From a virus (Duplodnaviria; Caudoviricetes), in IMG/VR virus record IMGVR_UViG_3300026549_000895, positions 128,001-192,000 of that record: a DNA stretch of 64,000 nucleotides. The stretch is one strand, 5' to 3'. A program made the translations under genes and the position numbers. Below are positions 1-49,360 of this stretch, piece by piece. Each line of letters begins with the position of its first letter. Positions within the stretch are counted from its first letter, which is position 1. The notes under the pieces were generated by a model. That model did not search any database, was not told the origin of the DNA, and worked only from the letters and a program-made list of their open reading frames with translations.

Positions 1-1230
1 AGTATCCAAGTCGCCTACGAGTTGATAGTTTGTTCCATCATACACGAAGAGATACACTCTCTGAGCGGTCAGAGTAGAAGCATTCGGAAGATTGGCGTTT
101 CTATACTTGATAGGTGCTCCACCTGTACCATTTACATTCAATTGTAGAGAAGCAACAGCTCCAGTATTTGTAACAGTAAACTTTACCGCTATCCATGCAC
201 CGGTTACTTTGGTAAATCCTGGACATGCAACAGCCTTTGTTGTTGTCGTAGCATCTGTAGAACATACACCATAGTGGATGATTCCAGCAGAACCATCAAA
301 GGAAACACCATCGATAGTAGCCGGAGTTGTTAACTTTGTTGCAGATAGAACGTTCTTATCTGCATCAGCTGTATTATCAACATTACCCAATCCAACATCA
401 GACTTCGTAACATTATGAGGATTTCCTGATGTAAGCTGTGAGTGGTCATATGCTATCTTACCTCTATCACCTCTATATGCAGTGGATGAAGTTTCACCCA
501 ATGCAAGGGACTCTGAGATTTCAACATATGCCGTCCCACCCCAACGATATGTTTTATTAGTGGATAAGTCAGTATATATTTTTCCGGCTTCAGCAGGGAT
601 CTCTGTTGTATGAGCAGAATCCTCATAGAACTTTCCGTTGTAAAGATATCCTTCTTTAACATCGTCAACAAACGAAGGAAGTTGTGAAGAAGGTACCTTA
701 CCAGATGCATCAAGTGTTGCAACATTATGAACATTAATTGTTTGCCATGCTGAGCCAGATTCCTGAACTTGGAAAGCACCATCCGCAGTACCTTCTCTGA
801 AAGCATATGTAGTATCAGTACCCGACAAACTCTCATAACGGGCATCGGCTGTATCATATCTGAACGTCGCATTCGATGCTTTGTCTATATAGATTCTATC
901 ACCAACAGTTTCCATCTCGGTGGTGAAAGCTGAATCCGTATAGAATTTATTTGTTTCTGCATCATAATAACCTTCGACGGTATTCTTTGCAACATCTGGA
1001 ATTGCAGCAGGCTTAATGGTAAATTCATGTGTTGACGGATTGTAGTCAACCATGTTTTGATACCAGCTATATATTTTTGCAAGTTCTATTGCGAGATTTG
1101 TCTTACCCGATGGATCGAGATTTGTAAGTAAATCTACAGTAACGCCTTCGGTAGTTACTCGCTTGGTGACATCATTGAGAACCGTTAAGAACTCGAAAAA
1201 AGCTTGAATATCATCAAATGTTCTTGCCAT
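1..1230 (-). CDS. Tail fibre protein (3'-truncated by window edge; absent from ORF track)
   Basis: ATG at 1230 with AGAGGAG RBS, open to position 1. Translates MARTFDDIQAFFEF...VATLDASGKVPSSQLPSFVDDV...GNPHNVTKSDVGLGNVDNTAD...LNVNGTGGAPI...FVYDGTNYQL, motifs typical of phage tail fibres. Confidence 0.8.
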   Translation of the reverse strand, partial: MARTFDDIQAFFEFLTVLNDVTKRVTTEGVTVDLLTNLDPSGKTNLAIELAKIYSWYQNMVDYNPSTHEFTIKPAAIPDVAKNTVEGYYDAETNKFYTDSAFTTEMETVGDRIYIDKASNATFRYDTADARYESLSGTDTTYAFREGTADGAFQVQESGSAWQTINVHNVATLDASGKVPSSQLPSFVDDVKEGYLYNGKFYEDSAHTTEIPAEAGKIYTDLSTNKTYRWGGTAYVEISESLALGETSSTAYRGDRGKIAYDHSQLTSGNPHNVTKSDVGLGNVDNTADADKNVLSATKLTTPATIDGVSFDGSAGIIHYGVCSTDATTTTKAVACPGFTKVTGAWIAVKFTVTNTGAVASLQLNVNGTGGAPIKYRNANLPNASTLTAQRVYLFVYDGTNYQLVGDLDT

Positions 1231-5357: not shown

Positions 5358-6566
5358 ATGGATGAAGAGTCCAAATATTCTTATTCCACCGAAGAACTTG
5401 ATGCAATATTAAGAAAGATGGAAAAAGGAATCACACCAATAATTCCAGATGATATGATGAAAGAAGTTCTACTTCGTAAACGTGAATTGGAATTATTGAG
5501 AACAGGCGATGATGAAGACTTGGAAGAATATCTGTCCGAGGTCGAGAAACATAAAAAACTCACCAGAGCCCTGAAGGAACGAGAACACAAGGCAACAAAA
5601 ACAGAAGCGTATGTATATACAATGACTCCTGAACAATTAAAAGAAATCGAAGAGGATATGACAACCACCTTTGTTAGAGAGAATCCAAATTCCCCATATA
5701 ACAAATCTTCCTTTGATTCTGAAATGTCCGAAGAGAAGCGTGAGATATTAATTAAATTATCAAAGCTTCGCAATTGTTATTATAATCAGAAGGATTATCA
5801 GGAGGCTATTGAAACTATTCGAAAAGCAATTGAGATATCTTTGAAGACTGATTATCCTTGGCTTTCTCCAGAAGAAGCAATACGTAAATTCAAGAATAAA
5901 GAAATCGTATATTCTTTCGGAGCTCTTCCCAAGATATATCTCAATTATATCACACCAGTAACAGATCCGGAAATGGCTAAGAAGATAGCATCTGGAGAAA
6001 TTACTCTTGTTGATAAGAATGAGAATCGTCCCAAGAAGAGAAGAAGGAAGAGTAAAGAAGGAGTCACTGTCGAAGTTCGTCCTATTGGTAAACAAGAAAT
6101 TGAAGATGAACGTAAGATGTTCAATGCAGGATATGATTCCAGTATTGCACCTATGCTCAAGGGAAGTGTTAATGCATATGGTAGATTCGATATGCCAAAT
6201 TCTGGATATTTCCATGATGATATTGAATCTCCTTATGAGCAAGAAAAAGAAGATATGCTTAGTGATTTTGATTGGCTCCAAGAGGATGCTGCTGAGAAGT
6301 ATTATAATCTGCTCAATAATATCGATGATAAGATGACAGTATATGATCTTCTCAAGGATATTCAGAAAACTCGGAATATTGATATCAATCCAGCAGTTGG
6401 CAATAATATGACTGATTTCTTGAATTCATATAATCTTGGTCCATCTGAATATGACAATGTTGCATATTCTTCACATGGTTACGCAAGATCTATAATCCAA
6501 CCAAATCAAAAGGCTTTGGAGATAGAGGAGCAATTGTTGGAAAATATACGTAATTCCAATCCATAA
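5358..6566 (+). CDS. Hypothetical protein, 402 aa
   Basis: Long ORF, GAAAGGAG RBS, early-type motif at 5324-5335, followed by a terminator. Confidence 0.75.
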   Translation: MDEESKYSYSTEELDAILRKMEKGITPIIPDDMMKEVLLRKRELELLRTGDDEDLEEYLSEVEKHKKLTRALKEREHKATKTEAYVYTMTPEQLKEIEEDMTTTFVRENPNSPYNKSSFDSEMSEEKREILIKLSKLRNCYYNQKDYQEAIETIRKAIEISLKTDYPWLSPEEAIRKFKNKEIVYSFGALPKIYLNYITPVTDPEMAKKIASGEITLVDKNENRPKKRRRKSKEGVTVEVRPIGKQEIEDERKMFNAGYDSSIAPMLKGSVNAYGRFDMPNSGYFHDDIESPYEQEKEDMLSDFDWLQEDAAEKYYNLLNNIDDKMTVYDLLKDIQKTRNIDINPAVGNNMTDFLNSYNLGPSEYDNVAYSSHGYARSIIQPNQKALEIEEQLLENIRNSNP

Positions 6567-6583
6567 TTTCTATGCTATATGAG

Positions 6584-6613
6584 ATACCCCGGGAAACCGG
6601 GGTATTCTTTTTT
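6584..6613 (+). terminator. Rho-independent terminator
   Basis: ATACCCCGG-gaaa-CCGGGGTAT followed by a T-tract. Confidence 0.8.
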
Positions 6614-6634
6614 CCGGATTTTTTGAAATTTCAT

Positions 6635-6822
6635 ATGTATATTATTAATATGAATAAGAGATAAGAATCCCTTAATCAGAATCAGATTCAAGCCTCATAA
6701 GGCAAATATAAAATAATAGAATCTTTAGATGTCTGAGTAATATATCTTATCATCTTACGATATTATGGGTTATCCGAAACCCAATACAATTCGGGAATGA
6801 TGTTTACCAAGCATCAGAAAGG
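6635..6822 (+). ncRNA. Conserved structured leader/ncRNA, copy 1 (promoter motif, ~100-nt stem-bubble-stem, pseudoknot, hairpin)
   Basis: Core 6671-6745 closely matches 48796-48867. Pairings TAAGAGATAAG/CTTATCATCTTA, TCAGA/TCTGA, AGATTC/GAATCT, GCC/GGC. Confidence 0.6.
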
Positions 6823-6829
6823 TACATTT

Positions 6830-7165
6830 ATGACTAACGATTTCAGAACAATTATGGGTATTGAAGAAGAAAGCACACCCACAACAACAGAAACAAAAGA
6901 AGCTACAACCTTCCAGAAGGTTGTATACGTTGCAGCAGGCGTAGGCGTCATAGCCGGTGCAGCCCTCGTAACTATGAAGGCAGCAGACCACCTCACAGCT
7001 GAAGTTGTCGGCGGTGTAAAGGCTGCAAAGGCTTGGAAGGCTACAAGACCTACCAAGCTCGATAAGGAAGTCGCTGCACGCGATGCATTCGCCAAGAGCC
7101 TCAAGGACGCAGGCTGGGAAGATGATAAGATTCTCGAAGCTTGTGTAAACAAGTACGGTTTCTGA
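6830..7165 (+). CDS. Small predicted membrane protein (cassette 1 cargo)
   Basis: GAAAGG RBS before ATG 6830; hydrophobic VVYVAAGVGVIAGAALV segment. Confidence 0.75.
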   Translation: MTNDFRTIMGIEEESTPTTTETKEATTFQKVVYVAAGVGVIAGAALVTMKAADHLTAEVVGGVKAAKAWKATRPTKLDKEVAARDAFAKSLKDAGWEDDKILEACVNKYGF

Positions 7166-7174
7166 TCAAGAAAG

Positions 7175-7213
7175 GAAACCCCGCATATGCGGGGTTTCTT
7201 TTTTCTTCTTTTT
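7175..7213. terminator. Bidirectional terminator
   Basis: GAAACCCCG-catatg-CGGGGTTTC with T-tract on + and an A-rich 5' flank, between convergent genes. Confidence 0.85.
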
Positions 7214-14794: not shown

Positions 14795-17700
14795 TTAAGA
14801 ATTATATATTTCTTCTAATTGACGTTTAAGTTCTATCATTACTTTGTTAGCAGCGCCAATGAGAATTGGTGAAGCTATCATACGTCTCAAACAAGATGTC
14901 GATGAAACGAAAACAGATATCTCTTCATCAGGTCTTGTTTCAGAGAAAGGTTCAAGTCCCTCTGGAATAACTTCTGATATGATTTGCTTTGAAGCAGCAT
15001 ATACAGCAAGCTTATCTCCAACCGATGCTTCATCAGCATGCTCAATATATATTTCAATAAGAACATCTGTATTTATTCCGTTGATAGAATCTGTTTGCAT
15101 AGGTTCGGTTGGTCTTGTGTAAAGAGTATCCAACTTATATGGAGAAGCTGAAGAATCATGTTTGTCCAACATCTTTCTTCTCTTCTTGTTTTCTTTGAAA
15201 TGTTCGGAAAGTAATTCGAACAATGAAGGAGATAATTTATCCATTGCCTTTGTAGTATACATTCTTACATCAACAACAGTACCGGCATGCTTTGCCTTGA
15301 TTACTCTCTTGGCAGTATCAGCATTTATCTTATCAGAAGAGAACGCTTTAAGGAAAGCATCAACTGACTTATCACCAGTATCACCAAGTCCGAACAGTAC
15401 AAGAGGATCTCCAATCTCAACAACATCTCCAACCTTTACAACAGAATCGATTTGATCTGTCGCATTGATTTTTATTTGTTGACACATTGTCAGTGTTGTT
15501 CCAAGTCGTTTTGAAAATGCATGAGTTACAACACCGGCGTCTTCATATGTTGAATATGTATCAGTGAAAGCAACCTTTGCCATAGGACCAATGTTCTGAC
15601 GAACTACTCCATCCGATCCTTTGTGGAAGAACTTCTCATGGAATGCAAGTATGTCTCCTTCTTTGAAGCTATCACCAACTTCAAAAGTAGTTTTCAATTT
15701 GTTATTAACATAGAAGCCACTTCCTGAGTTGAATGAATACTTCGGAGATATCTGAATTGCTTTCTTAGTTTTGGATTTGTATTCAACAACGATGAACTGG
15801 TCGTTCATATCGATTACCTTGCCATCCTCATCTGCAACAACTGCAAATTCCTCTGATAAGTATGAAGGAACAATTTCATCAACGCCATTTGAAACAATAG
15901 CAGGTTCTGCATCTTCGGTTGAAATAATATGAGAAGACTGTGAACAAGCAATTGCAGTACGAATAGCATCATCTCTCGCAACAGTTCCAGGTGTTAACAA
16001 TTCAGAGAATGATGAAAGCTGAAGGTCTGTTTTCGGATCATCAGGAGAATATACACGAGTATATCCACGAATGGATTCGATATTAGGATCAACAACAAGC
16101 TGACGAGATACACCAACTTCTGCAGAGTTTGGAGTTGACATTGCAATCTTGGAAATCATTGTTTTATCAAATGATCTCTTTTGAACGGTGAATACTTTAC
16201 CACCGCCACCAGATTCATTAACACCTGCATATCCTTTCTTTGATATTGCTTCACGAGTATGAAGTTCAATAATAGGATTCAATGCAGATATAGGAGCAAC
16301 TGTTTCAACATTCATCAAATCATTTATTACACAATTGGCAGTCAAAGACAACTTGTTTCCTCTTGCCTTACTACCAGAAGTGTTATTATACTTTGATACA
16401 GCAACTGCGAGATTGTAATGCAGAATTGCAGGAATGATTTCAGTTGATCTGATTCTGTACAATGAAGCGTTTGTTTCATCAACGTGTTCATTATCACACA
16501 GAATATTCGAAGCATAAATCAACATACCAACCAAATCATTCGGTAAGTTATAATGATTACATACTTCATACGTGATTGGATCAACGAAGAATTTATAACG
16601 TGAAATGAAAGTTGTCAACTGAGAATATGTTGTGAAGAATAACTGGTCAAAGATATCAATGTATATCGAACTTTGATCCATAATCGGAACATCGAATTCA
16701 GCAACAGTATGACTCTTTGTAGGAAGCTTGTATAAGCCATTGAACAACAACTGATTTGACAATGTGTTCTTAACAGCCAATACCTTATCCTTGAATGGAA
16801 TCTTTATATATCCTAAATCATTAAATGACTTATCGACATATTTATGTTCAGCGCGTGTCTTATTCAGGAATTCAGTTATACCTTCCCATGCACAACAAGC
16901 AACACCAAGAGGAATCTTGATTCCAATAACTATTTCTGAATACATATGAACCTTTGTGGGTTTCTGCTTCATATATGCTTCACGTATTTCCTGAGGAAGA
17001 TTATCGAGAATAACTTCTGTCAATGTTTTGTTGTCTCTGGTAAGTCCAGATTCAGTATTTATAACAACAGGAACTTTGTTGACCATACCACAACAGAATT
17101 CATTATCAGCCACAGTGACGAATCCATATTTCTTAAAGCACTCATTCATGTTGAAATAAATTTCCATGTGAGTTTCTTTACATTTAATATACGACCATCT
17201 CTTGGCGAATTCATCAAACTCGATAGTTGTCATATATGAAGAATTCGCGTATGTGGATCCACCTGGCTTTACATATTTATTTACTCCATTGGCATCTGTT
17301 TCCTTATCAATCAACTTAACAAGCATGCCTACATCAACGAGTGATTTAGTATCATATCTATTGACAGAAATCTTGTTGTAGTTTGTTGTAAGAATAACCT
17401 TCTTCGGATTAACTTTCAGAATCGGAATCGGGAAATCTTGTTTACCAATGTTGAACCATTTACCACCCGAGAAGAACTCACCATTCTTAACTATCGGAAT
17501 TCGAACATTGATAACATTCTGAAGTCCAGATTGTTTTGATTTCAAAGTAACTTTCCAGTTCTTTACCAGTTCGGATATTGTTGATATATCAGAAACTTCG
17601 ATGTTGAGAACTTCAAATCCATCGGGAAGTTTCTCCAACTGATTGAATACCGCAACGATATCCTTATCCATCATTTCCTTCTCATATATACGAGAAGCAT

Positions 17701-19030
17701 TTGGGAATCCAGAACCACGTGCAACACCCTGATTGGTGGTTGATATGTTTCGAGGTCGTTGTGGTTCTGGCATTGGCATATCAGTTACATTTGATAATTT
17801 CTCAATATCATTCTTATCAAGTTTGATTTGAGACAAAGTGTTTCTCAAAGCAAGTTCACGCTTTGAAGATACAATATGTTTTGATTCTTCCTTTTCATCA
17901 GACTTGACAATGTTTGATAATATCTTACCTGCATCATCAAGATACTTCTTTGATACGTCATCTGTATCAGGAGTTTCCAAGTCAGATGAAATATGTTCAT
18001 AGTTATTAATGCTCTCTTTGATTTTTGTTGTGTTAATTCTGGACAACAGTTCAGCATTTATCTTCATTGATTTTGCATAATACAAAGTATCTTTCTTGAC
18101 TTCACCCTTTGGAACTCCATACTTAGAATGAAGAGCATTCAGAGTAGACTTAGTATTCTTTGAAACTGATTGAGCTTTATGTTGTAAATCAGAAACTTCT
18201 TCATCTCCAAGAGATTCCATTTCATCTTCAATAGAGATGTCTTTCTCAACAACTTCATCTTCAGCAGCTATGTCATCTCTTCTCTTAGTAACCTCAACAG
18301 TTCCTATTTCAGATAACAAAGTTTCAAATTGTGATTGTTCTTCTGATAAGTCATTGTTGAAATCAACCTTGTAATCAGTCCCCTTTGAAATAGAACGGAA
18401 TACAATTATGAGATTCATCTTCTTTGAAATACCTTCTGTACAACAAGCACTCAAGAATCCATTCAACACATCATCGCTGACTCTTTCGATATCATAATTC
18501 TTGAAGATGTCATATCTATCGACATCAACAACCATAATGTTCATCTTCTTGGGATCGGTCATGTTGAATACATTCATCATATTCCATACGATGTCTCGCA
18601 TGTTTGATATCAGTTTCTCATTATCTAACTTACTCTTCCTGAGATGATTTGTTACTTCCTGCATATAACCAGTCATTGATACATAAAGAGGATTTTTTGC
18701 TTTATCCAAATCTTCCTTCTTGGAGAACATAACAGGTTTTATTGGAGTAACAGATTTCAGATTATTCAAAACATAATCAACTCTACGATTGAATTCCTTT
18801 CCGCTTATTGAATAATTAACTCTCAATGTGGAATTGTTTATTGCAAGCGGAATATACAAATCCTTATAATTTATTCTACTTGGAGGAAGCATTGATTCTA
18901 CGAGTTTCATTTCATATTCAAATGAATTAGATACAAGGAAAACTCGTGTGTTAGAATCTTTATTGTCAGGCATACTTGTTATTGGATTCTTCACATAGTT
19001 TTTCAATCTTGTTATATCCATAAATTTCAA
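14795..19030 (-). CDS. Multisubunit RNA polymerase beta subunit, large N-terminal part (probably virion RNAP, phiKZ gp178-like)
   Basis: Beta motifs MSTPNSAEVGVSRQL, DDAIRTAIACSQSSH, TYEDAGVV, SVGDKL..SKQIISEV and CLRRM (equivalent to PSRM); lacks the beta C-terminus; late-type promoter at 19078-19090. Confidence 0.85.
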   Translation of the reverse strand: MKFMDITRLKNYVKNPITSMPDNKDSNTRVFLVSNSFEYEMKLVESMLPPSRINYKDLYIPLAINNSTLRVNYSISGKEFNRRVDYVLNNLKSVTPIKPVMFSKKEDLDKAKNPLYVSMTGYMQEVTNHLRKSKLDNEKLISNMRDIVWNMMNVFNMTDPKKMNIMVVDVDRYDIFKNYDIERVSDDVLNGFLSACCTEGISKKMNLIIVFRSISKGTDYKVDFNNDLSEEQSQFETLLSEIGTVEVTKRRDDIAAEDEVVEKDISIEDEMESLGDEEVSDLQHKAQSVSKNTKSTLNALHSKYGVPKGEVKKDTLYYAKSMKINAELLSRINTTKIKESINNYEHISSDLETPDTDDVSKKYLDDAGKILSNIVKSDEKEESKHIVSSKRELALRNTLSQIKLDKNDIEKLSNVTDMPMPEPQRPRNISTTNQGVARGSGFPNASRIYEKEMMDKDIVAVFNQLEKLPDGFEVLNIEVSDISTISELVKNWKVTLKSKQSGLQNVINVRIPIVKNGEFFSGGKWFNIGKQDFPIPILKVNPKKVILTTNYNKISVNRYDTKSLVDVGMLVKLIDKETDANGVNKYVKPGGSTYANSSYMTTIEFDEFAKRWSYIKCKETHMEIYFNMNECFKKYGFVTVADNEFCCGMVNKVPVVINTESGLTRDNKTLTEVILDNLPQEIREAYMKQKPTKVHMYSEIVIGIKIPLGVACCAWEGITEFLNKTRAEHKYVDKSFNDLGYIKIPFKDKVLAVKNTLSNQLLFNGLYKLPTKSHTVAEFDVPIMDQSSIYIDIFDQLFFTTYSQLTTFISRYKFFVDPITYEVCNHYNLPNDLVGMLIYASNILCDNEHVDETNASLYRIRSTEIIPAILHYNLAVAVSKYNNTSGSKARGNKLSLTANCVINDLMNVETVAPISALNPIIELHTREAISKKGYAGVNESGGGGKVFTVQKRSFDKTMISKIAMSTPNSAEVGVSRQLVVDPNIESIRGYTRVYSPDDPKTDLQLSSFSELLTPGTVARDDAIRTAIACSQSSHIISTEDAEPAIVSNGVDEIVPSYLSEEFAVVADEDGKVIDMNDQFIVVEYKSKTKKAIQISPKYSFNSGSGFYVNNKLKTTFEVGDSFKEGDILAFHEKFFHKGSDGVVRQNIGPMAKVAFTDTYSTYEDAGVVTHAFSKRLGTTLTMCQQIKINATDQIDSVVKVGDVVEIGDPLVLFGLGDTGDKSVDAFLKAFSSDKINADTAKRVIKAKHAGTVVDVRMYTTKAMDKLSPSLFELLSEHFKENKKRRKMLDKHDSSASPYKLDTLYTRPTEPMQTDSINGINTDVLIEIYIEHADEASVGDKLAVYAASKQIISEVIPEGLEPFSETRPDEEISVFVSSTSCLRRMIASPILIGAANKVMIELKRQLEEIYNS

Positions 19031-29835: not shown

Positions 29836-30537
29836 TTAGTATTGAATGAAACCTGCGGTGATACATGAGATGTATCCTAAAAACACATTATCCTTTTTCT
29901 GTATTTTTCCTTCGGTTCCATCTTGGAACATTTGTGACAAATATAAGAAATCATCACAAACTGTTAGTACAATTGGTTCTTCGATAGTTGCACATTTATT
30001 AATGATATTCAAATCTGATGTGACAATTGTTGAGTTTACATGTTCTTTGATTATGGGATCTATGTCTCCATAGACATATTCTACTTTGAATGGAAATGAA
30101 CCCTTAATATATTTTTCTATATGAGAAGAATACTGTCGTGAGTATATTGCAAGATATGGAATACTTTGAATTTTTGCTGCATCGAATATCTTATAGATGA
30201 ATTTATTCGTAGGCTTCAAAGCGTATGCTGATTCATAAAATACTTCTTCTTGAGATATGTAATCAGCATCTTCCTTGGGGATACCTTGCTTTTGTAAATA
30301 CTCGGAGAAATTATATTCTTTTCGATTTACATAATCAGATATCAACTGCTGGTCAGAAACATCTATTATTTTATTTTTGCGATATTGGTCGGCTACATTG
30401 TAGCCGACCATCGCAACTATTTCTTCATATGAACAGATGATACCCTCTTTACCGATGAATGATAAATCGAGCATGTGAAATCCTGACGATTTGTTCTTAC
30501 CCAAGAAATCTAACGATTTCAGACAGTAAGCTATCAC
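29836..30537 (-). CDS. Hypothetical protein (start may be MLDLSF near 30474)
   Basis: ORF heading the RNAP operon. Confidence 0.6.
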   Translation of the reverse strand: MIAYCLKSLDFLGKNKSSGFHMLDLSFIGKEGIICSYEEIVAMVGYNVADQYRKNKIIDVSDQQLISDYVNRKEYNFSEYLQKQGIPKEDADYISQEEVFYESAYALKPTNKFIYKIFDAAKIQSIPYLAIYSRQYSSHIEKYIKGSFPFKVEYVYGDIDPIIKEHVNSTIVTSDLNIINKCATIEEPIVLTVCDDFLYLSQMFQDGTEGKIQKKDNVFLGYISCITAGFIQY

Positions 30538-48684: not shown

Positions 48685-48709
48685 TATCCCCGGGTTTATC
48701 CCGGGGATA
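48685..48709 (+). terminator. Terminator hairpin
   Basis: TATCCCCGGG-tttat-CCCGGGGATA. Confidence 0.75.
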
Positions 48710-48756
48710 ATTTCTATGCTATGACAAAACAGGACTCGATTATTTTAACTTTTCAA

Positions 48757-48949
48757 ATATATATTATTAATATGATAAGAAGATAATAAATGTCTCTTAA
48801 TCAGAATCAGATTCAGCCTATATGGCAATTATAAAATATGAGAATCTTAGATGTCTGAGTAATATATGAATTATCTATCTTACACATCACAGCCCACCAG
48901 AAGCTGAGATTCTGGGTAGGATGCAAAAGCCAATGCATCTAAAGAAAGG
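48757..48949 (+). ncRNA. Conserved structured leader/ncRNA, copy 2
   Basis: Same core as 6671-6745; closing stem TAAGAAGATAA/TTATCTATCTTA; downstream pseudoknot and hairpin of different sequence but the same topology. Confidence 0.6.
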
Positions 48950-48956
48950 AAAATTT

Positions 48957-49313
48957 ATGGCTACCATGAAATTCAAACTCGACAAGCTTGAGCAGCGTTT
49001 CCAGGAAAGAAACATTGCAGTAGAAGGATGTGAGCTTGAAATAGAATTTGAACTCGCTGAACTGCCGGGAATAATCAAAGAAATCCCCACTGTAATTAAT
49101 TCAATTTCAGCAGCAGCCGAAAAGAGCAACTCCCGTGAATGGGAGAAAGTATGTAATGAAATAAACGAAGCTAATGACAAGCTTCGTGAGACAGAACGCA
49201 ATTTGCGCGGAGCCGAAGCGCGTGCTGAAGCTGCAGAGCGGAAAGCTCAGAGAAAGCAGGAAGAAGTTGAAGAACTTCGCAAGAAATGCTTCGGAACTCC
49301 TGCTGAAAAGTAA
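48957..49313 (+). CDS. Small coiled-coil protein (cassette 2 cargo)
   Basis: GAAAGGA RBS before ATG 48957; E/K/R/A-rich C-terminal coil. Confidence 0.7.
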   Translation: MATMKFKLDKLEQRFQERNIAVEGCELEIEFELAELPGIIKEIPTVINSISAAAEKSNSREWEKVCNEINEANDKLRETERNLRGAEARAEAAERKAQRKQEEVEELRKKCFGTPAEK

Positions 49314-49320
49314 GAAAGAT

Positions 49321-49360
49321 AAACCCCACCTTTCGGTGGGGTTTTCTTTTTTCTTTTTTA
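49321..49360. terminator. Bidirectional terminator
   Basis: AAACCCCACC-tttc-GGTGGGGTTT plus T-tract. Confidence 0.85.

Follow-up and report, generated by a model that had tools for sequence, protein, structure and literature searches.

The 64,000-nucleotide (nt) stretch of DNA from a rumen-type jumbo phage considered here (the window; bases 128001-192000 of the 239,830-bp virus record IMGVR_UViG_3300026549_000895, 36% G+C) contains two loci, A and B, at which similar noncoding DNA precedes two unrelated short open reading frames (ORFs). The shared element is probably a two-copy, structured, cis-acting 5' leader RNA of ~180 nt that serves two unrelated early genes, and not a mobile cassette; this estimate covers the reading together with the mechanism proposed for it below. 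The leader is a well-supported RNA fold without a match in Rfam, and it belongs to transcripts predicted to be made by the virion polymerase.

Jumbo phages with their own polymerases express genes largely without the host transcription machinery, and the post-transcriptional tuning of their early genes is poorly understood. Here a three-part fold (rod, pseudoknot, and hairpin) is common to two unrelated early genes. Together with a covariance model, 14 natural variants, and a natural domain-swap series, it provides starting material for studying how RNAs are stabilized, controlled in translation, and recognized by proteins in uncultured phages of the rumen.

The leader RNA and its fold

The repeat that underlies the leader lies at positions 6621-6750 and 48743-48870 of the window, with 84% identity between copies that are 42 kb apart, and accounts for two direct-repeat families (D4 and D5) that are among the longest in the window. 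According to BLAST, the partner copy is the sole full-length match to the repeat in the genome (E 6e-33), and both BLAST and the covariance model R2 report two full leader copies. Similarity between the two loci resumes at the ribosome site and the terminators, while the ORFs are dissimilar. The leader-specific part is the ~180-nt 5' leader itself, which is composed of a ~100-nt rod, an H-type pseudoknot, and a hairpin (P4) beside an open Shine-Dalgarno (SD) sequence. An earlier note on this DNA had described the RNA element as structured and unrecognized, and both points hold: the fold is conserved, and Rfam 15 reports no match within the leader, either at gathering thresholds or at E values up to 5. 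Sub-threshold Rfam hits fall on terminators only.

The rod is a near-continuous duplex of ~35 bp with conserved internal loops. Its helices are P1, P2, and the invariant P3, with an internal loop/short helix between P1 and P2; a small apical hairpin, which covaries, and an A/U-rich strand of ~15 nt, which is conserved, complete the rod. Given the predicted start sites, the first rod pair is formed at +4 in copy A and +3 in copy B, and the first 12 nt of the leader have a predicted unpaired probability of ~0.18. Minimum free energies of rods A and B are nearly equal (−23.5 and −23.8 kcal/mol, with z-scores of −3.8 and −2.4, respectively), and the identical rod fold is obtained for 12 of 12 leaders folded singly.

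Comparative evidence comes from 14 distinct leaders of related metagenomic jumbo phages, aligned with R2. Standard pairs occupy 95.0% of pair cells in this alignment versus 85.5 ± 0.7% in shuffled controls (none of 500 shuffles scores as high), and when partners are slid by 1-3 columns as a control, only 33-40% of cells are paired. Changes on both sides are seen at 17 pairs (59 cells), and the covariation score equals 0.273 versus 0.102 for shuffles. Beside these covarying stems stand invariant unpaired and junction nucleotides; in the rod, it is the outer stems that covary, and the A/U-rich loop, like P3, is invariant.

As for the pseudoknot, which begins 64 nt upstream of the AUG in copy A and 67 nt in copy B, it can be formed at the same place in every leader from about six S1 and five S2 sequence variants, the latter including CCGAA/TTCGG, CCGGA/TCCGG, CCAGT/ACTGG, and CTGAAA/TTTCAG. 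It is also recovered on a structure-blind MAFFT alignment, with pairing in 88% of cells and double changes at 7 of 10 pairs even though four sequences there are misaligned by one column; comparable pseudoknots are rare among shuffled sequences. Hairpin P4 shows changes on both sides at 5 of its 6 pairs, with 97.6% of cells paired in the R2 alignment, and its stem sequence is swapped with compensation in relatives L021, L022, and L026. The adjacent SD is predicted to be accessible, having unpaired probabilities of 0.84 in copy A, 0.76 in copy B, and 0.48-0.94 across the 14 leaders.

Two further leaders bear on how the parts are assembled. A third early leader of the same genome (L039; genome positions 673-764, minus strand, outside the window) matches R2 at 45 bits; instead of a rod, a simple 5' hairpin precedes its pseudoknot, P4, and SD. 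In relative L017, a rod with B-like arms (78-81% identity) stands before a pseudoknot part and a cargo that are A-type. Because one leader is rodless and the other mosaic, the rod and the pseudoknot module are separable domains that were exchanged while the cargo genes stayed put. The two leaders form a natural domain-swap series. L039 itself precedes a 138-aa (amino acid) ORF with no family match.

Several other features of the leader were considered. An AUG conserved inside the rod opens frames of 3 to 10 codons with no SD, whose lengths shift with indels, and was rejected as a coding feature. A possible long-range helix joining the A/U-rich loop to the linker ahead of the pseudoknot, judged by eye, holds in some leaders and fails in copy B and L032; it was dropped because such A/U matches arise easily by chance. 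In one relative (L015:3798-4003), the linker between rod and pseudoknot contains a tandem duplication of ~17 nt, which suggests that this linker tolerates length change.

Early promoters, phage-wide punctuation, and layout of the loci

According to an iterated position weight matrix (PWM), the genome contains 18 strong intergenic sites with one extended consensus, and both leader promoters rank among these 18 top sites. The TATATTATTAATATG box alone, with at most 3 mismatches, is found at ~25 genome sites, which are mostly intergenic. The early consensus of this phage is that of the early promoter of Bacillus jumbo phage AR9, which has been mapped experimentally as AAATATATATTAT-N6-G(+1) and is recognized by the virion RNA polymerase that AR9 injects (PMC5312081). 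Copy B fits the AR9 consensus at 13 of 13 positions and copy A at 11 of 13, with the G correctly spaced in both. Because of this match, transcription is predicted to start at G6652 (A) and G48774 (B).

The phage also encodes multisubunit polymerase subunits. The beta subunit of a multisubunit RNA polymerase of the phiKZ/AR9 type lies at 14795-19030 (phrog_3148), its closest cultured relatives being those of Staphylococcus and Bacillus jumbo phages (~28% identity). A further RNA polymerase subunit gene (phrog_2986) lies under the best-scoring promoter, an arrangement that fits the early expression of the non-virion polymerase in AR9/phiKZ, and the recurrent early-promoter sites point into non-structural genes. 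Early leaders of this phage tend to begin with structure: 12 of the 18 open with a hairpin within nt 1-4 versus 20% of shuffled controls.

Two of these other early leaders deserve separate mention. Downstream of the strongest early promoter lies a strongly folded leader of 300 nt (L003; genome positions 225126-225425, plus strand; −82 kcal/mol), which holds a terminator-like hairpin and a T-run just before the RNA polymerase subunit gene and may be an attenuator or a separate small RNA. A second shared leader family, also outside the window (L006 and L007; predicted starts 121322, 108636, and 53113, minus strand), provides three genes with a near-identical leader of ~50 nt that has a GATATC-containing hairpin before the SD.

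The order of elements at locus A is terminator hairpin, promoter, rod, pseudoknot, hairpin, SD, ORF, and terminator, and the same order is found at locus B between 48686 and 49360 (Table 1). Every item of the shared ordered frame that the earlier note had listed is therefore present at both loci. Its claim of an upstream terminator at each of them survives in part: both have the hairpin, and the one at locus B lacks a T-run. The view that this frame is special to the two units, however, does not hold. Besides the promoter, the AGAAAGG ribosome site is the usual SD of the early genes of this phage, and terminators with an ACCCC...GGGGT hairpin and a T-rich tail occur genome-wide, so promoter, SD, and terminator types are ordinary phage punctuation. 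An apparent "cassette frame" can thus consist mostly of such punctuation.

Table 1. Features of loci A and B in window coordinates
Feature	Position	Strand	Remarks
15-nt motif ATAATTTCTATGCTA, copy A	6563-6577	+	Upstream of leader A; overlaps stop codon of 402-aa ORF
Intrinsic terminator of gene upstream of locus A	6585-6612	+	GC hairpin followed by T-run
Early promoter A, virion-RNA-polymerase type	6613-6652	+	Core 6638-6652; predicted start G6652; PWM score 43.5
Leader rod A	6655-6757	+	5'-terminal imperfect hairpin; P1, P2, P3, small apical hairpin, conserved A/U-rich strand
H-type pseudoknot A	6766-6795	+	S1 6766-6770 with 6779-6783; S2 6773-6778 with 6790-6795
Hairpin P4, copy A	6799-6815	+	Abuts SD
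SD AGAAAGG and start codon A	6816-6832	+	SD 6816-6822; ATG 6830-6832
Cargo A ORF, 111 aa	6830-7165	+	Single transmembrane helix, highly conserved
Terminator between cargo A and convergent 2434-aa gene	7176-7213	.	A-runs and T-runs on both sides; common type of this phage
GC hairpin downstream of 362-aa ORF, locus B	48686-48708	+	Without T-run
15-nt motif, second exact copy (B)	48707-48721	+	After the hairpin, not before it
Early promoter B	48735-48774	+	Core 48760-48774; predicted start G48774; PWM score 45.1
Leader rod B	48776-48882	+	
H-type pseudoknot B	48890-48915	+	S1 48890-48893 with 48903-48906; S2 48897-48902 with 48910-48915
Hairpin P4, copy B	48920-48939	+	
SD AGAAAGG and start codon B	48943-48959	+	SD 48943-48949; start codon 48957-48959
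Cargo B ORF, 118 aa	48957-49313	+	Small beta-alpha-beta head and long coiled coil (model)
Terminator between cargo B and convergent 1057-aa gene	49321-49360	.	Common type

The two cargo proteins show no similarity to each other by BLASTP or by profile-profile comparison of their families, in agreement with the earlier note, which had called them an unrelated transmembrane and coiled-coil protein. Neither of them has anything above noise in Pfam, PHROGs, or the protein atlas. The transmembrane helix of cargo A is almost invariant and rich in small residues; its structural model is poor (predicted local distance difference test, pLDDT, 55). The AlphaFold model of cargo B (pLDDT 75.7) places a small beta-alpha-beta head on a long coiled coil and has no Foldseek match below E 3. 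A ZapA chain appears at E 5, which is a lead and not a match; the cell-division protein ZapA has the same general layout.

Neighbors of the two loci include a head-tail joining protein, the 2434-aa protein, the beta subunit of the multisubunit RNA polymerase, and an endolysin. The ORFs upstream of the loci (402 and 362 aa) are mutually unrelated, as are the convergent downstream giants (2434 and 1057 aa), and the 1057-aa protein carries an SMI1/KNR4 (SUKH-type) domain. For the upstream 402-aa protein, no relative was found in IMG/VR.

The 15-nt motif ATAATTTCTATGCTA is found exactly in the genome only at loci A and B, and a near-identical version of it is kept upstream of both leader types in relatives (L009-L033). 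Its 9-nt core has 8 occurrences in the genome versus ~3 expected. Two other early promoters (genome positions ~1130 and 39790, minus strand) have looser copies ahead of them. As a general promoter the motif was rejected, near-matches to its full length being mostly intragenic. A 19-nt antisense match to the repeat at 30362-30380 of the window is A/T-rich, lies inside a coding region, and was taken as chance.

Conservation in relatives and competing explanations

Relatives of the two loci were taken from metagenomic contigs of up to 245 kb with cargo homologues, plus four loci from a scan of metagenome contigs for the core pattern of the leader. In all fetched A-type loci with readable flanks, an ORF of 403-405 aa is followed by a gap of ~260-300 nt, an ORF of ~110-120 aa for the membrane protein, and a convergent ORF of 2434-2455 aa. 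Likewise, the B-type loci of this set all have an endolysin and then an ORF of 242-320 aa (window: 362 aa); after the gap come the coiled-coil ORF and convergent ORFs of ~865-876 aa (window: 1057 aa) and then 399 aa. Empty sites, a third cargo, or other locations were not seen among these relatives, whose cargo proteins are down to 45-58% identical. In one relative contig of 235 kb, the strict core pattern occurs at exactly two places, one A-type and one B-type. The core pattern was not found in IMG/VR, GenBank phages, or 185,579 species genomes, and the leader was found in one phage clade only.

With regard to completeness of the record itself, its last 60 nt recur at position 72, and ~131 terminal nt (239700-239830) thus repeat the start (1 to ~131). 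Although listed as linear, the assembly probably represents a circular or terminally redundant genome and would thus be essentially complete.

In the favored explanation, each copy would be transcribed from an early promoter of the type that the virion-packaged RNA polymerase reads in AR9/phiKZ. Base-paired 5' ends are established in E. coli and Bacillus as a protection of mRNAs from 5'-dependent decay, and the outer 5'-terminal stem of the rod may protect the 5' end of the mRNA in the same manner, like the simpler +1 hairpins on most other early transcripts. Within the rod, the invariant core would then serve as a sequence-specific site for one trans-acting partner, for which a phage or host protein, an RNase III-type nuclease, and a small ligand are candidates, and this partner would tune the stability or translation of both mRNAs jointly. 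The pseudoknot and the hairpin would hold the ribosome site accessible and insulate it from the rod.

Several observations weigh against this explanation. The 14 leaders come from one fairly narrow clade, and shared ancestry inflates the covariation counts; moreover, the R2 alignment was fitted to the model. The inner helix P3 is invariant and offers no covariation evidence for or against it. Neither a leader terminator nor an alternative fold that sequesters the SD is present in the 14 leaders, and the leader could be purely constitutive. Finally, the start sites are placed by analogy with AR9, to which the beta subunit is only ~28% identical.

The earlier note had proposed a modular family of cargo cassettes similar to the promoter-stem-loop (PeSL) elements of T4-type phages, that is, a mobile expression cassette whose repeated promoter-leader and terminator frames would serve as sites of recombination and so shift accessory ORFs within and between genomes. 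Such a cassette would account for a common frame around unrelated ORFs and for units that are transcriptionally self-contained between hairpins; the promoter region of ~45 nt recurs widely and could support homologous exchange, and leader parts are indeed mosaic between lineages, as in L017. However, full copies number only two per genome; in the relatives described above, position and kind of cargo stay constant, with no empty site and no third cargo; and the element does not stand on both sides of an ORF. The likeness of terminators reflects a genome-wide style, and recombination between the copies would delete 42 kb including RNA polymerase and virion genes. The cassette is thus very improbable. 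Of the outcomes that the earlier note had named as fatal to its proposal, only two full copies in the genome were indeed found, whereas the downstream ORFs did not turn out to be homologous. A neutral remnant of an old promoter-leader duplication, with function limited to the promoter, 5' hairpin, and SD, would also explain why only two copies exist, and generic parts do explain much of the similarity. It appears to be the least probable explanation of all, since both copies are kept across divergent relatives and many compensatory changes preserve the stems while the loops are invariant, which is unlike neutral sequence.

Other explanations concern what the rod does. It may be a nuclease site (e.g., for host RNase III, as in T7/SP82 early RNAs) or the source of a stable non-coding RNA of ~105 nt (e.g., a decoy for a polymerase or a defense protein), with the ORF as a passenger. 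The length of its duplex and the conserved internal loops agree with this, as do the higher conservation of the rod core compared with the rest of the leader, its exchange between paralogues, and its separability, evident from the rodless L039. On the other hand, no terminator or known cleavage motif lies between rod and ORF, the RNA matches neither 6S nor any other RNA family, and neither leader strand resembles a promoter; with a best PWM score of 2.8 versus at least 22 for real sites, a promoter-mimicking leader is unsupported at the sequence level anywhere on either strand. Processing or a stand-alone RNA is hence quite unlikely. Slightly less credence still is due to a new riboswitch class, in which the rod, with or without the pseudoknot, would be a metabolite or ion aptamer that sets both early genes by host state. 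The leader does have the aptamer-like covarying stems with invariant junction and loop nucleotides, an elaborate composite architecture with a pseudoknot, and the same element on two unrelated genes. It has, however, no apparent expression platform (predictions leave the SD open, and the leader lacks a terminator), belongs to no described class even at relaxed Rfam thresholds, is confined to one phage clade and absent from the bacterial genomes searched, and precedes cargo genes that give no metabolic clue.

A cis-acting 5' leader therefore remains the favored explanation. A bolder reading, in which rod and pseudoknot represent an undescribed regulatory RNA class of jumbo phages with their own RNA polymerases, is unlikely, though somewhat less so than any of the alternatives above. 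In that reading, the RNA would either sense a ligand or protein as a switch or act as a decoy derived from the 5' end, and it would time the early membrane and coiled-coil proteins independently of host transcription factors.

Comparison with known systems

PeSL elements of T4-type phages are promoter/terminator composites of ~100 bp with sigma-70-like promoters; they are numerous, clustered in hyperplastic regions, and found on both sides of ORFans, their presence varies between close relatives, and mini-circles are formed (PMC2839356, PMC4122927). Loci A and B resemble them in combining an early promoter with GC-rich stem-loops, and in having small uncharacterized ORFs as insulated units beside late genes. 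At both loci, the early promoter follows a GC hairpin by 25-50 nt. In contrast to PeSL, the promoter is of the AR9 virion-polymerase type and not sigma-70-like, the hairpin at locus B is without a T-run, the specific part is a folded, presumably transcribed leader of 180 nt, and the two copies are fixed in position and cargo. Each leader copy precedes one ORF and follows none, so the two-sided flanking typical of PeSL is absent.

As for 6S RNA, a promoter-mimicking decoy of RNA polymerase, the leader shares with it the rod shape and conserved unpaired stretches. However, there is no Rfam 6S match and no promoter-like sequence, and the rod is continuous with the ORF instead of being a separate transcript.

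Known 5'-terminal stem-loops and related stabilizers of mRNA include those of the E. coli ompA/papA type, the B. subtilis aprE leader, ermC, and the SP82 5' stabilizers. Similarly to these, the leader has a stem within a few nt of the predicted 5' end and a purine-rich 5' arm, and such a stem is common to most early transcripts of the phage. Known stabilizers, however, are simple hairpins or ribosome-binding purine tracts, in contrast to the ~100-nt rod, whose invariant core goes beyond pure end protection.

Early promoters of AR9, phiKZ, and phiR1-37 (PMC5312081) are similar to those found here in the extended AT-rich consensus with a +1 G six nt past the box, in being intergenic and aimed at non-structural genes, and in belonging to phages that encode multisubunit polymerases. 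In contrast to AR9, the starts given here are predicted and not mapped, and the word "hairpin" is absent from the text of the AR9 paper (0 hits).

The nearest mechanistic precedent for the pseudoknot is the gene 32 mRNA operator of phages T4, T2, and RB69 (PMC3014915), an H-type pseudoknot with two stacked stems that is thought to act in translational control and, in T4, lies 67 nt before the start codon. In that operator, unstructured A+U-rich RNA comes after the pseudoknot, and the protein that binds is the gene 32 product itself. The pseudoknot of the present leader likewise lies ~65 nt upstream of the start codon (64 and 67 nt). The gap between pseudoknot and SD, however, is filled by a covarying hairpin here, and a large rod precedes the pseudoknot. 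In addition, the element serves two or three unrelated genes, so the control that it might exert would not be autogenous.

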